The translations under genes were made by a program, and so were the position numbers. A stretch of 30,054 bases of DNA from Candidatus Schekmanbacteria bacterium. Its GTDB lineage: Bacteria; Schekmanbacteria; GWA2-38-11; J061. The first letter of the stretch is position 1; every line of letters begins with the position of its first letter. Where the stretch lies: assembly GCA_003695725.1 (NCBI GenBank), contig RFHX01000040.1, positions 1-30,054 on the forward strand, written 5' to 3'. The notes under the pieces are model-generated. The model did not search any database. It was not told where the DNA came from and was given only the letters and a program-made list of their open reading frames with translations. Shown piece after piece: positions 23,679 to 30,053 of this stretch.

Positions 23679-23746
23679 CAACAATCTTTCAATTTGAATT
23701 AACTAATAACTATCAGAAAAAATAATTTTTTATGGGAGGATTTGAA

Positions 23747-25033
23747 ATGTTTTGTAATCAATGTGAACAAACAGCTAAAGGTACAGGTTGTACTGTGGCG
23801 GGAGTCTGTGGCAAAAATGCCGATATTCAGTCCTTACAAGAAATTCTTCTCTATGGATTAAAAGGAATTTCTGCATATGCGTGGGCAGCAAGAAAAGTTG
23901 GGAAAGTTGATCCCGAAGTAGATGCTTTTATGCATGAGGCGCTTTACACGACGGTGACAAATGTCAATTTTGATCTTGAAGACCATATCAATATGGCATT
24001 GAAATGCGGACAGATGAATCTCAAGGTAATGGAAATGTTGGACAAAGCTTATGTAGAGAGGTATGGAGCGCCCACACCTGTTGAAGTGGAAACGGGGACT
24101 AAAGAAGGCTATGGGATTCTCGTGACAGGACATGATTTGCCAGACCTTGAAGAGCTTTTGAAACAGACTGAGGGGAAAGGTATCAATGTGTACACCCATT
24201 CGGAAATGCTTCCAGCTCATGGATATCCTGAACTTCGTAAATATGAACATCTTGTAGGAAATTATGGCGGTGCATGGCAAGACCAAGTAAAGGAATTTGC
24301 CGAATTTCCGGGAACGATACTCGTAACAACAAATTGTGTGCAGATTCCTAAAGAAAGTTACAGTGACAGATTATTTACGACAGGTGTAGCTTCCGTCAAC
24401 AGAGAAAATCACATTGAAGGCCACGATTTTTCGAAACTTATTGAAAAAACACTTCAGACAAAGCCTTTGCCTGAAGCTCCGGGAAAGAAGATAATGACCG
24501 GTTTCCATCACAGTGCAATCTTGGGGATTGCTGACAAAGTGATTGATGCTGTCAAATCTGGTAAGGTAAAACATTTCTTCCTTATTGGCGGTTGTGATGG
24601 TGCAAAGACAGGACGAAATTATTACACAGAAATTGCTGAAAGAATACCGCAAGACTGTATCATATTGACTCTTGCTTGCGGAAAATACCGCTTTAACAAA
24701 AAGGATTTTGGTACTATAGGAGATATACCAAGGTTGATTGACATAGGACAATGCAATAATGCATATAGCGCCATTCAAGTGGCAGTTGCATTAGCAGATG
24801 CATTCAAGTGTGGAGTGAATGATTTGCCTCTCTCTTTGATTTTGTCATGGTTTGAACAGAAAGCTGTTGCAATTCTCCTTACACTTCTTTCTCTTGATAT
24901 CAAAGGGATGAGATTGGGACCTACACCGCCTGCTTTTGTTAGCGAGAATGTTTTTAAGGTATTACAAGATAAATTTGACCTAAAATTGATAACCACACCT
25001 GAAGAGGATTTGAAGGATATTTTGGCTCAGTAA
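23747..25033 (+). CDS. hcp: Hybrid cluster protein (hydroxylamine/NO reductase), short class III type, 428 aa
   Basis: MFCNQCEQTAKGTGCTVAGVCGK (C-x2-C-x8-C-x5-C); hybrid-cluster ligand motifs GHD, HSEM, TNC, GGCDG, ACG, GQCN, WFEQKA. The in-frame upstream 'MGG' is the GGAGG SD, so the start is ATG 23747. Confidence 0.95.
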   Translation: MFCNQCEQTAKGTGCTVAGVCGKNADIQSLQEILLYGLKGISAYAWAARKVGKVDPEVDAFMHEALYTTVTNVNFDLEDHINMALKCGQMNLKVMEMLDKAYVERYGAPTPVEVETGTKEGYGILVTGHDLPDLEELLKQTEGKGINVYTHSEMLPAHGYPELRKYEHLVGNYGGAWQDQVKEFAEFPGTILVTTNCVQIPKESYSDRLFTTGVASVNRENHIEGHDFSKLIEKTLQTKPLPEAPGKKIMTGFHHSAILGIADKVIDAVKSGKVKHFFLIGGCDGAKTGRNYYTEIAERIPQDCIILTLACGKYRFNKKDFGTIGDIPRLIDIGQCNNAYSAIQVAVALADAFKCGVNDLPLSLILSWFEQKAVAILLTLLSLDIKGMRLGPTPPAFVSENVFKVLQDKFDLKLITTPEEDLKDILAQ

Positions 25034-25098
25034 AAGCATCCTTACTTGACAAATCAGAATATTTTATTATTGATTAGATAATTGAGAAATTGAGTTAA

Positions 25099-25184
25099 TT
25101 TTTTTTCGAAAAAGGTAAACCCTGTGGAAGCAGGGGGCACAAAGCCAACGGGTCCAGGAGGGACGGCCGGGTTGCCGAAAAAAA
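25099..25184 (+). ncRNA. Cyclic di-GMP-I (GEMM) riboswitch aptamer
   Basis: P1 TTTTTTTCG/CGAAAAAAA; GGTAAACCC-TGT-GGAA-GCA-GGGGGCACAAAGCC (P2 with GNRA loop); P3 AGCC..CGG-GTCC/GGAC..CCG-GGTT; conserved GGGTTGCCGA. Lies in the 5' leader of a CDS. Confidence 0.92.
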
Positions 25185-25195
25185 GAGATAACAGT

Positions 25196-25232
25196 ACCTC
25201 TTTCTCGGTAAATCCGGGAAAGAGGTTTTTTT
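25196..25232 (+). terminator. Riboswitch expression-platform terminator
   Basis: ACCTCTTTCTCGG-TAAAT-CCGGGAAAGAGGT (13 bp, one G-U) followed by a T tract, 33 nt before the ATG at 25266. Confidence 0.9.
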
Positions 25233-25265
25233 ATATATTTTTTTAAATTTAAAAGGAGGAAAAAA

Positions 25266-27113
25266 ATGAAAAACCAAAGCAAAAAAATTCTGACATTTTT
25301 TTTAATTTTAACAATTTTTGCTTTTCTGCCAAATTTTAGCAAAGCAAAGGCAATAAAGAAAGCCTCCATTGTTCCTTCAAAGGCGAAAATACAAGCAAGC
25401 AAAAAAATAGATTTAAAATTTGTCGTTAAATCAAAAGGGAAGGTAAAGAAAGGAGCCCTTTGGTATGTCAACGGTCTTTTAGGTGGAAATGATGCAGTGG
25501 GAACGATAACCTCGAAAAAAGGCGGAAGAAAAGCTGTATATGAAGCTCCTGACCTTCCTCCGAATCCATCAACAGTAATTATAAGAGCTGAGAGCAAGGA
25601 AGATTCTTCAAAAACGGCTACTGCAAAGATTATCATCAAAGATAAGAAGATAAAGAAGAAGAGTGCAAAAATAAAGGGTGTTGCTGCAACAGGATTGCCG
25701 ATTGCAGGAGCGCCGGTTGAAGTAATAAACAGCATTGGGGAAATCGTAGGAAATGATACAACAGAAAACGATGGTTCTTATCTTGTCAAAATCAAGAAGA
25801 AAAAATATGAACCTCCCTTCCTTGTGAAAGTGACACCTGAAGGTGAAAAACCGTTATATAGTATTGCTTCAGGAGATTCAAAGATTGCAAATGTAACACC
25901 TTTAACTGACAAGGCAGTCGAAAGTTTTATTGTCAAGAATGGTGGCAGTGTAAGCGATGATGATTATTCGGATGATATCAAGAAGATAAAGGAAACTGTT
26001 GCTGATTTCGACGGAGAGTTTGAAAAAGCAAAGGATGCTTTAGAGAAAGCTTTGGGCATTGATACTCTCAACATTGATTTTGTAAAGTCAAAATTAGATC
26101 CTGAAGATCCTGAAAATGACTATGAAAAGATCTTGGAAACTATAAAAGATTCAATCGAAGCGTCAGGTAAGAATGACATTGATGACCTTATTAAGGTAGA
26201 TGATGATTTTATTGATGTAAATAATGATATAATTCTTCTCTATAAGGACAAAGGGATATTAAGCGATGATAAGATTCCTGAAGATTTTTCGGAAGACGAA
26301 CTTCCAAAGATAGAAGGAGTAATCACCAATCCTCTGACAGTTACAGATACTACTACTATCACGGGAACAGTAATTGTCACAAATACTATAACGGTGAATG
26401 ACATTGACATAATTGTCAGTGATACTGCGAAAATCGTGATCAAGGATGCCAATGGCAATAAAACAGATGGAAGCTTTTCAGATTTGTCTGCAGGCAAGTT
26501 TGTAGAAGTCAAATATTATATTGATGGGGACCTCTTCTATGCAACAGAAATAGAAGTTAAAAATAAGAAAAAGAGCGAGAATGAGGATGATTTGAATGGG
26601 CTGATTACACAAAAGAATGAAATTGCCAAATCAATAGTTGTAGATGGCAAAGCGATTTTCATAAACAATGACACTGAAATCAGGGTTAATGATAGTATAG
26701 CTAGCTTTTCAGATTTGGCTATCGGACAAAAAGTGGAAGTTGATGTCCTCTTGACAGATAACAAACTTGTTGCCACAAAAATTAAAGTCGAGAGCCAGGA
26801 AAGTGAAGACGAAAAAGATGCCGAAGAAGTAAAGGGGATTATTGACAAAATTATAAAATCAAACAACGAAATAGTTGTTGATGGAATTGTTATTGCAATA
26901 ACCCCTGATACGAAGATAGAAATTAATGACACATTGGGTTCATTTTCAGACCTCAGCGCAGGGCAATTCGTGAATATGAAAACAGTTTTTATCAATGGGA
27001 AACTTTCTGCCCTTAAAGTAGAAGTTAAAAATGAAGAAGAGGGAAACAACAATAATGGCGGAAATGACGGTAATGAGAATGATAATGGAGATGGTAATGA
27101 TAATAATCTATAG
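25266..27113 (+). CDS. Secreted/surface protein: signal peptide, Ig-like domain, carboxypeptidase-regulatory-like beta-sandwich, acidic helical region, three DUF5666-like repeats, Asn/Gly/Asp tail
   Basis: AGGAGGA SD; Sec signal MKNQSKKILTFFLILTIFAFLPNFSKA; WYVNGLLGGN..GTI..YEAP..P.PSTV; IKGVAATGLPIAGAPVEV..TTENDGSY; three repeats with SFSDL-x2-G-x2-V. Confidence 0.8.
   Translation: MKNQSKKILTFFLILTIFAFLPNFSKAKAIKKASIVPSKAKIQASKKIDLKFVVKSKGKVKKGALWYVNGLLGGNDAVGTITSKKGGRKAVYEAPDLPPNPSTVIIRAESKEDSSKTATAKIIIKDKKIKKKSAKIKGVAATGLPIAGAPVEVINSIGEIVGNDTTENDGSYLVKIKKKKYEPPFLVKVTPEGEKPLYSIASGDSKIANVTPLTDKAVESFIVKNGGSVSDDDYSDDIKKIKETVADFDGEFEKAKDALEKALGIDTLNIDFVKSKLDPEDPENDYEKILETIKDSIEASGKNDIDDLIKVDDDFIDVNNDIILLYKDKGILSDDKIPEDFSEDELPKIEGVITNPLTVTDTTTITGTVIVTNTITVNDIDIIVSDTAKIVIKDANGNKTDGSFSDLSAGKFVEVKYYIDGDLFYATEIEVKNKKKSENEDDLNGLITQKNEIAKSIVVDGKAIFINNDTEIRVNDSIASFSDLAIGQKVEVDVLLTDNKLVATKIKVESQESEDEKDAEEVKGIIDKIIKSNNEIVVDGIVIAITPDTKIEINDTLGSFSDLSAGQFVNMKTVFINGKLSALKVEVKNEEEGNNNNGGNDGNENDNGDGNDNNL
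26307..27029 (+). repeat. Three tandem intragenic DUF5666-like repeats (about 26307-26561, 26589-26792, 26826-27029)
   Basis: Each has G-x-I...I-x-V-x-G/D..I..T-x-I...SFSDL-x2-G-x2-V...A-x2-I/V-x-V; exact 15-nt match AGCTTTTCAGATTTG at 26472 and 26703. Confidence 0.85.
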
Positions 27114-28319: not shown

Positions 28320-30053
28320 TCATATAATCTTTTTGAATTTGTAATCTTTTACCGATTCGTAAACTTTTGCGTCGATAAATAACCTGACCAAATAAAGGTC
28401 GAGCTTTTTATCCTTTGCCTCATTTAGAAGAATATCTAATGCCTTATCCACAACAACTGCTTTTTTGTAAGGCCTGTCAGCCGCAGTAAGAGCATCATAA
28501 ATGTCTGAGATTGTAATTAGTCGTGATTGAAAGGGTATTTGCCTGTAATTGATTCCTCGCGGATAACCGCCGCCGTCTAATTTTTCGTGATGGCTGTATG
28601 CTATATCTGGAATTCCTTTCAATTCCTTTGTCCACGGGATTTTACTCAAAAAATTGAAGGTATGAGTTACATGGGATTCAATCTCTTTTCTTTCTTCTTC
28701 AGTGAGCGAACCTTTCTTGATGCTCAAAAAATGGAATTCTCTTTCTGATAAGATTGTGGTTTCCTTACCATCTGCACCTACATATTTTTTGTTCACCAAT
28801 TTAGCCAGTTCTGCTGAATTTTCTTCTGGAAGTATTGTAGGTTCATCTGCTTGTTTTATGAGATTAAAATAATAGTCTAATTGTTCAATGTCTTTTTGCA
28901 TCTTATAATTGATTCTATTAATGAAATCCGATTCTGTTTTATTCGGATTTTTTTTGAAAAATTCCGCCTTTCTTTCTGCATAATCTTTTTCTATTGATTT
29001 TTTTATGTAGTCAAAACGTTGTTTGATGATTTCAATTTCGAGTGGATAGAGTTTTTTAGCCTTTACAAGAACATTTTCTCGTACTCCAACTTTGCCAAAG
29101 TCGTGTAAAAGCGTAGCATATCTAAGCTCTTTGATTTCGTCATCACTGAAGTAGATGTCTTTATATTTCCCCCTGTCCAAGTTGTTTATTATTTCTGCAA
29201 GACGGACCGTAAGAATAGCAACTCTTTCTGAATGACCCGAAGTCGTAGGGTCTCGTTGTTCAATGGCTGTAACGGAAGCTTTCACGAAGCCTTCAAAAAG
29301 GTTTTCAATATTTTTATATAGAACATTGTTTTCTATTGATATAGCTGCTTGGCTTGCAAGGGAGTTTACTACTTCCTGACATTCCTTTGAGAAGGGGATG
29401 ACTTCTCTTTTAATGATTTCGGGTCTCAACAATTTTTTTTTGAAATCTCTTTTTCGGTTAATGAGTTGCAGTACCCCTGTTATTTCATCTAAATGATTTT
29501 TCATCGGCACAACTATCATTGATTTTGTTCTATAACCCGTTTTTTCATCAAAACTTTTGTTGAAGGAATAGGGCGAATTGTGATGAATGGAATAAACATC
29601 TTTTATATTGAGCGCTTTGCCTGTGACAGCCACATATCCGGCAAGACTTTCCTTGTTGAGAGGCAATTTTTGGTCTAAAACACTTTCCAAGGAAAGTGTG
29701 TCATTTTGGGCAAGTTTAAAACGAAGAAAGCTTTTTCCATTTTTCTTTTCTACAAGGTATAGGCTTCCAGCATCGGCTGATGATATTTCTCTGCATTTTT
29801 TTAATATAAGCGTTAATAGTTTGTCATAATTTCTTTCAGAAGAAAGTGCAGCGCCAATCTTATTTACTGCTTTAAAGTTTTGTTCGAGTTCTCGATACTT
29901 CTTCTGAAGATGATGGTTTTTTTCTCTTAAAAGAATATTCGAAATAGCATTGTCTATAATCCTTTCTATAATTTCTTCTCGAAATGGCTCCGGCAAGATA
30001 TAATCAAAAGGCTGAATAAACGATGGTTCTGCCTTTTTTACCAATTTCTTTTC
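28320..30053 (-). CDS. GAF + HD-GYP cyclic-dinucleotide phosphodiesterase (5' end probably outside the window)
   Basis: GAF (ADAGSLYLV, SLAGYVAVTG, FDEKTGYRTKSM, GVLQLINRK); HD-GYP (GHSERV, LHDFGKVG, HHEKLDGGGYPRG, DIYDALTAADRPYKK). The frame stays open (GAA AAG AAA) upstream of the TTG at 30044. Confidence 0.92.
   Translation of the reverse strand, partial: EKKLVKKAEPSFIQPFDYILPEPFREEIIERIIDNAISNILLREKNHHLQKKYRELEQNFKAVNKIGAALSSERNYDKLLTLILKKCREISSADAGSLYLVEKKNGKSFLRFKLAQNDTLSLESVLDQKLPLNKESLAGYVAVTGKALNIKDVYSIHHNSPYSFNKSFDEKTGYRTKSMIVVPMKNHLDEITGVLQLINRKRDFKKKLLRPEIIKREVIPFSKECQEVVNSLASQAAISIENNVLYKNIENLFEGFVKASVTAIEQRDPTTSGHSERVAILTVRLAEIINNLDRGKYKDIYFSDDEIKELRYATLLHDFGKVGVRENVLVKAKKLYPLEIEIIKQRFDYIKKSIEKDYAERKAEFFKKNPNKTESDFINRINYKMQKDIEQLDYYFNLIKQADEPTILPEENSAELAKLVNKKYVGADGKETTILSEREFHFLSIKKGSLTEEERKEIESHVTHTFNFLSKIPWTKELKGIPDIAYSHHEKLDGGGYPRGINYRQIPFQSRLITISDIYDALTAADRPYKKAVVVDKALDILLNEAKDKKLDLYLVRLFIDAKVYESVKDYKFKKII

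Follow-up and report, generated by a model that had tools for sequence, protein, structure and literature searches.

Two questions are raised by this locus: whether the leader of a gene for a putative secreted protein in Candidatus Schekmanbacteria senses c-di-GMP, and whether the ligand turns the gene on or off. The window, which is the whole 30,054-nucleotide stretch of DNA analysed here, contains a leader with an aptamer, an intrinsic terminator, and a strand that can pair with either. The sequence and folding models point to a canonical class I c-di-GMP riboswitch that most probably switches OFF transcription of the downstream gene for the secreted protein, under kinetic control.

Aptamer and ligand pocket

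The aptamer is located at positions 25104–25180 of the forward strand, in the sense orientation within the 5′ leader, 86 nt ahead of the start codon (ATG, 25266). The Rfam c-di-GMP-I model RF01051 matches 25104–25179 (+) over model positions 1–87, with a score of 59.8 bits (gathering score, 35) and an E-value of 3.7e-11 for the whole genome. A comparison with this model was proposed in the first-pass annotation, which described a full GEMM aptamer with an almost entirely A-U P1, and both parts of that description are borne out. In the full-model alignment, every strongly conserved consensus base is present, and no other match to the Rfam covariance models was found in the 30-kb window. The 5′ strand of P1, TTTTTTTTCG (25099–25108, +), pairs with 25176–25185 in the minimum-energy fold and forms one U-G, seven U-A, one C-G, and one G-C pair. 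Only its inner seven to eight positions are conserved in the congener (genome G001), in which 25099 and 25101 are changed. P1 closes two hairpins, the first of which is capped in the Rfam alignment by a GNRA tetraloop (GGAA, 25126–25129, +; GAGA in the congener), as is characteristic of the GEMM-I layout.

The pocket is canonical and consists of G25114, A25141, and C25175 (all +), the equivalents of G20, A47, and C92 of the Vibrio cholerae riboswitch Vc2, the reference structure of RF01051. G25114 occupies model position 10 of RF03167 and A25141 model position 37, whereas C25175 was assigned from the alignment and the fold and is also the first base of the antiterminator strand proposed in the first-pass annotation. 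In Vc2, G20 contacts one guanine of the ligand through Hoogsteen pairing and C92 pairs with the other in Watson-Crick geometry, and the pocket additionally includes A47 (PMC5888326). The window aptamer shares with Vc2 this pocket triple, the three-helix layout, and the GNRA loop. It differs in its shorter second hairpin with a 7-nt loop, in the U-A pair 25116–25139 that replaces a C-G pair beside G20, and in carrying an intrinsic-terminator platform. By these computational measures, the element holds as a class I c-di-GMP (GEMM-I) aptamer with a canonical pocket, which would be expected to bind c-di-GMP.

The highest-scoring model after clan competition is RF03167 (c-di-GMP-I-GGC), which matches 25105–25180 (+) over its whole length with 60.6 bits and an E-value of 3.7e-12. 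This score exceeds the gathering score of the model, 59 bits, by 1.6 bits and the score of RF01051 by 0.8 bits, which amounts to a tie between the two models. The label could mean that the aptamer senses another ligand, as a true GGC variant or as a cGAMP-sensing GEMM-Ib. 'GGC', in the naming associated with Weinberg et al. in 2017, reportedly refers to positions 20, 47, and 92. The likeness to RF03167 lies in overall sequence and shape. The sole consistent difference of the RF03167 consensus from canonical aptamers, a G at model position 37 (...CGCGAAgCc...), is absent from the window, which reads ...CACAAAGCC with A25141 at this place, and the identity as a c-di-GMP-I-GGC variant was rejected. 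The cGAMP riboswitch was likewise discarded, as the base that is replaced by A in cGAMP sensors, G20, is a G in the window (G25114). The RF03167 label is given to seven of ten clade aptamers, and those with a pocket that could be read from the sequence carry the canonical A, which is also found at the equivalent of 25141 in all nine clade leaders analysed. The label therefore reflects overall shape and not the pocket; on the window aptamer it is an artefact of clan competition with no sign of a variant ligand, and sensing of a different ligand is very improbable. The aptamers labelled RF03167, which are those of the window and of the relatives L013, L006, L014, L019, L034, L016, and L021, score 60.2–66.7 bits against the cut-off of 59. 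Automated counts of the GGC variant are likely to be inflated by such over-calling through Rfam clan competition.

Terminator, antiterminator, and their predicted competition

The intrinsic terminator identified by a terminator consensus scan is formed by a hairpin at 25196–25226 (+), which has a stem of 13 base pairs, a 5-nt loop TAAAT, and an energy of −21 kcal/mol. Seven of the 13 pairs are G-C and one is a G-U wobble (T25205-G25217). The stem is followed by the tail TTTTTTATAT, which includes a tract of six T at 25227–25232 (+). The terminator does not overlap the aptamer, and both it and P1 are present in the minimum-energy fold of the full-length transcript. The strand that connects the two elements comprises the 3′ strand of P1 and its flanks (25172–25187, +). 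In the folds of growing transcripts, it pairs either with 25099–25108 to form P1 or with 25198–25211 to form an antiterminator, depending on the transcript length. The segment 25198–25211 (+), the 3′ half of the antiterminator, is composed of the 5′ arm and loop bases of the terminator, as seen in the fold of the transcript ending at 25213; the duplex has an energy of −13.7 kcal/mol.

The first-pass annotation placed a 13-bp terminator after the aptamer, as is found, and reported complementarity between CCGAAAAAAAGAG (25175–25187) and CTCTTTCTCGG (25198–25208). This complementarity exists, but the antiterminator is longer than was claimed. The two strands form four base pairs, an AAA/C internal loop, and six base pairs; folding adds the pairs U25172-A25211, U25173-A25210, and G25174-U25209, which extend the antiterminator to 13 base pairs. 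In the transcript 25099–25213, the paired segments are 25172–25178 with 25205–25211 and 25182–25187 with 25198–25203. The antiterminator occupies the pocket base C25175, the whole 3′ strand of P1, and the 3′ strand of P3. Because C25175 and the P1 strand are both used, the antiterminator is incompatible with the ligand-bound aptamer and also with the terminator.

When the minimum-energy fold is followed for transcripts that start at 25099 and lengthen, an order of events is suggested. P1 (25099–25108/25176–25185) is present in the minimum-energy fold for 3′ ends 25182–25203, and the 13-bp antiterminator is the best fold for ends 25209–25223, with −34.7 kcal/mol at end 25213 versus −32.1 kcal/mol for the P1 state. 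From end 25224 on, P1 together with the full terminator is best (−50.6 versus −45.1 kcal/mol). Even without ligand, the terminator is part of the minimum-energy fold of the full-length transcript, so that the ON state would depend wholly on kinetics. A heuristic path search gave barriers of about 9 kcal/mol from P1 to the antiterminator and about 17 kcal/mol from the antiterminator to the terminator; thus a leader free of ligand could convert to the antiterminator while transcription proceeds, and the antiterminator, once formed, would be trapped on the time scale of transcription. The nearest-neighbour energies leave out tertiary structure and the ligand. In this energy model, the consensus aptamer fold is positioned 3.4 kcal/mol above the ensemble even for the aptamer alone, and the Rfam consensus fold, when forced in the partition function, has an occupancy of 0.4% for the bare aptamer. 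The ligand bonus needed to hold the aptamer, which increases from 3.4 kcal/mol and reaches 8.9 kcal/mol at end 25218, can accordingly be taken only as approximate. The competing helix adds at most 5.5 kcal/mol to it, which, by our own estimate, is comparable to c-di-GMP binding energies at micromolar ligand.

The complementarity between the P1 strand and the terminator arm is more than chance, and is marginal under a whole-transcript control. Duplexes with shuffled arms have energies of −3.3 ± 1.6 kcal/mol, and none of 500 shuffles reaches the native −13.7 kcal/mol. Swapping the terminator arms leaves a duplex of only −5.7 kcal/mol, a loss of 8 kcal/mol. The whole-transcript control is stricter and yields a weaker separation than the duplex control: the gain from back-pairing of the arm is −6.4 kcal/mol in the window versus −3.3 ± 1.7 kcal/mol, and four of 100 shuffles reach it.

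These features suggest a mechanism in which the aptamer 25104–25180 folds as the leader is transcribed and is closed by the A-U-rich P1. Binding of c-di-GMP to G25114, A25141, and C25175 would lock P1 and the pocket. The 5′ arm of the terminator would then remain free to form the 13-bp hairpin 25196–25226 before the T run, the polymerase would stop, and the gene would be OFF. When the ligand is absent, the newly made 5′ arm 25198–25211 would invade P1 and pair with 25172–25187, and this antiterminator would outlast the passage of the polymerase over the T run, leaving the gene ON.

The riboswitch Cd1 (Cdi-1-3), located upstream of flgB in Clostridioides difficile, has the same aptamer class and the same order of strands: P (P1 5′ strand), A (P1 3′ strand), T (terminator 5′ arm), and H (terminator 3′ arm). 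This scheme has been dissected in Cd1 by NMR, ITC, and simulation, which showed that the aptamer and the terminator coexist and together compete with an antiterminator formed by A and T (PMC9262584). The antiterminator of Cd1, described as 'transiently stable', gives way only after long times to the terminator, which is favoured thermodynamically as the end state (PMC9262584). The class I switches of C. difficile are transcriptional OFF switches, with targets that include a secreted protease and a putative adhesin (PMC11477304). Unlike Cd1, the predicted window switch is from an uncultured hot-spring bacterium and would control an Ig-like/DUF5666 protein; its P1 is nearly pure A-U, and its terminator arm also pairs with the 5′ J1/2 segment. 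All computationally testable features of RF01051 and of the Cd1-type OFF platform are present in the leader. The same design has already been worked out for Cd1, and the understanding of c-di-GMP riboswitches is unchanged.

Recurrence of the switch in the order and alternative readings

GEMM-I aptamers were found among 40 relatives in the congener, in a member of the same family (G002), in G004, which is one of two other genomes from the order, and in five more distant genomes, two of which have matches below the family cut-off. Homologues of the controlled gene follow GEMM-I aptamers in the congener (71% identity), in G002 (46%), and in G004, which has two copies with about 39–40% identity. 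The pair of riboswitch and gene thus recurs in all four genomes of the order with riboswitch matches. The flanking synteny, comprising a ferrochelatase-like gene and hcp on one side and an HD-GYP gene on the other, is retained only in the congener. The recurrence of the pair beyond this synteny indicates that the switch belongs to the controlled gene and not to hcp. Compared with the congener, the window is 34% identical between the hcp stop codon and the aptamer, 90% in the aptamer, 50% in the spacer, and 84% in the terminator, the changes in which are three loop bases and the compensatory replacement of C25204-G25218 by T-A. A pattern scan of metagenomes returned 13 loci, mostly duplicates of the G002 and G004 leaders or unrelated GEMM-I aptamers, and only L034 was added to the comparison. 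A protein scan of genome contigs for further relatives found none besides the congener.

All nine clade leaders contain a terminator, which is visible in the full-length fold of each. Folding of the individual sequences showed that the newly made arm pairs back into the P1 region in nine of nine. The antiterminator duplex is rarer than 4% of shuffles in eight leaders and beats the swapped-arm control in all nine, and the whole-transcript control separates native from shuffled arms in five (in the congener, 27% of shuffles reach the gain, which is not significant). The antiterminator strands vary in sequence yet remain complementary: AAAGAG pairs with CUCUUU in the window and GAAGAGAC with GUUUCUUC in G002, and the leaders of G002 and L034 pair CCGAAGAGAC with GUUUCUUCGG. 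A MAFFT alignment of the whole leaders has the inner aptamer helices paired in 98–100% of cells, with a change on both sides at 25116–25139, where five leaders have U-A and four have C-G. On the same alignment, P1, the second hairpin, and the terminator are paired in 52–81% of cells, and a one-column slide scores equally. Register shifts in these three elements spoil the covariation, and the platform was therefore examined by folding of the individual sequences. Together with the folds of the growing transcript and the duplex energy, the nine-leader comparison supports the OFF-switch logic proposed in the first-pass annotation, as far as models of folding can.

The arrangement might still function differently. 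Within an OFF switch, the working antiterminator could be formed by the 5′ arm and CGAAAAAGGU (25107–25116), a segment of the P1 5′ strand and J1/2 that includes G25114 and is complementary to the terminator arm 25196–25206, or the two pairings could be redundant. The alternative pairing is the minimum-energy fold of the window transcript for ends 25205–25208 and, at the end of the loop, of three of the nine relatives including the orthologue from the congener, and it is also incompatible with a ligand-bound pocket. However, it has to span the whole aptamer with a loop of about 90 nt and should form more slowly than a local hairpin, and in the window the local antiterminator overtakes it once four more bases have been made. 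We regard it as improbable that this pairing does the work or shares it; since it would likewise be blocked by the ligand, the sign of regulation would be unchanged.

The terminator could also be constitutive, serving as the missing terminator of hcp (23732–25033) or as a fixed attenuator, with the complementarity to P1 an A/U-rich by-product and the aptamer acting otherwise or not at all. The marginal whole-transcript control of the window and the non-significant one of the congener would agree with this reading, as would the lack of a terminator of hcp's own before 25196 and the presence of the hairpin in the full-length minimum-energy fold whatever the state of the aptamer. Nevertheless, the duplex is far outside the shuffles and is lost when the arms are swapped, the complementarity recurs with other sequences in leaders that do not adjoin hcp, and an aptamer conserved at 90% beside a spacer at 34% argues for an aptamer in use, so that a constitutive terminator has only a small chance of being the explanation. 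Class I aptamers can be wired both ways, and the homologous cGAMP switch of pilM is an ON switch (PMC9262584), which makes it necessary to consider that ligand binding prevents termination. ON designs use one strand for both the aptamer and the terminator, whereas the terminator of the window starts 10 nt past the last pair of P1 (25185) and is compatible with a folded aptamer, and only the ligand-free alternative sequesters the terminator arm. An ON switch is extremely unlikely here, and the kinetically controlled OFF switch remains the preferred reading.

Controlled protein and genome context

The controlled gene (25266–27113, +) is preceded by the Shine-Dalgarno sequence GGAGG (25255–25259, +), which is located 6 nt before the ATG, lies outside the switch, and is conserved in the congener. 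The gene encodes a protein of 615 residues with a signal-peptide-like N-terminus, an Ig-like N-terminal domain, a CarboxypepD_reg-like segment, an acidic linker, three DUF5666 domains, and a tail rich in Asn, Gly, and Asp. The genome has no other DUF5666 gene, and a search of the protein against NCBIfam returned no match. The N-terminal domain is homologous to the Ig-type repeats of giant proteins, and the Ig-type and DUF5666 repeats are adhesin-like. The earlier proposal of a dispersal or motile role instead of an adhesin has no support beyond the sign of regulation, and in C. difficile OFF control of this type extends to a putative adhesin. The protein and its counterpart in the congener (L023, 3001–4788) are about 70% identical. 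Identities between the neighbouring proteins of the two genomes are 88–91% for hcp, the ferrochelatase-like protein, and the ATC-hydrolase-like pair, and 77% for the HD-GYP protein. The faster divergence of the controlled protein appears typical of exposed surface proteins. Distant proteins with multiple DUF5666 repeats (L037, L038, and L039) have no Rfam match in the 140–227 nt upstream, where their contigs end, and two of them match a Por secretion tail, faintly in one case. These three proteins thus give no sign of a broader association between DUF5666 and riboswitches.

Part of the leader RNA may stem from read-through of hcp. A promoter scan found no sigma-70-like promoter in the 66-nt gap between hcp and the aptamer, where a perfect TTGACA at 25046–25051 is without a properly spaced −10 element, and no sigma-54 or sigma-28 consensus was recognised by eye upstream of the aptamer. 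A terminator scan of 25034–25195 found no terminator for hcp. It is conceivable, if doubtful, that the riboswitch terminator is also the only one of hcp, that the leader is largely made by read-through from hcp, and that c-di-GMP gates the entry of stress transcripts into the surface-protein gene; neither G002 nor G004 has hcp upstream of the riboswitch. If this were true, the locus would be a two-input gate that requires nitrosative or redox stress and low c-di-GMP, and the complementarity of the terminator arm to both strands of P1 would protect the ligand-free ON state against disturbance by the extra 5′ RNA.

The genome is a 2.77-Mb hot-spring metagenome assembly with a completeness of 98% and contains two GEMM-I aptamers; the sequencing runs with the DNA of the window are exclusively hot-spring DNA metagenomes. 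Genes for c-di-GMP synthesis, as expected of an organism with a c-di-GMP-I riboswitch, are represented by eight GGDEF matches, and no EAL match was found in the genome at its 98% completeness. A protein with GAF and HD-GYP-type (HD_5) domains is encoded at 28320–30044 (−), 1.2 kb downstream of the controlled gene. This set of enzymes suggests that c-di-GMP may be degraded by HD-GYP enzymes. The genome also has genes for flagellin and FlhA, and these, together with the GGDEF and HD-GYP genes, make c-di-GMP-driven switching between motile and sessile states plausible.

The second GEMM-I aptamer of the genome (L001, G000:C240, 1488–1578, −) has a score of 73.2 bits, no terminator, and a counterpart in the congener (L005). 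It is followed by a hairpin with CTCCTT in its loop, a Shine-Dalgarno sequence, and a mini-ORF of four codons (MNTS; the congener has MNPT). The nearest ORF of greater length lies about 160 nt downstream and codes for a Cys-containing peptide of 52 residues with no NCBIfam match. This aptamer may have a translational platform or a small-protein target. Other GEMM-I aptamers of relatives and metagenomes (L016, L015, L024, L031, and L020) have genes with prepilin-type N-termini downstream. One member of this set, from G004, precedes a gene for a CxxCH-containing, cytochrome c-like protein; it is without a terminator and has a Shine-Dalgarno sequence 10 nt after P1.

With this leader, an uncultured hot-spring lineage contributes a further well-formed instance of a known switch. 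The uncharacterised family of Ig-like/DUF5666 secreted proteins is tied to predicted c-di-GMP control in the four genomes of the order with riboswitch matches, which offers a lead to the function of DUF5666.
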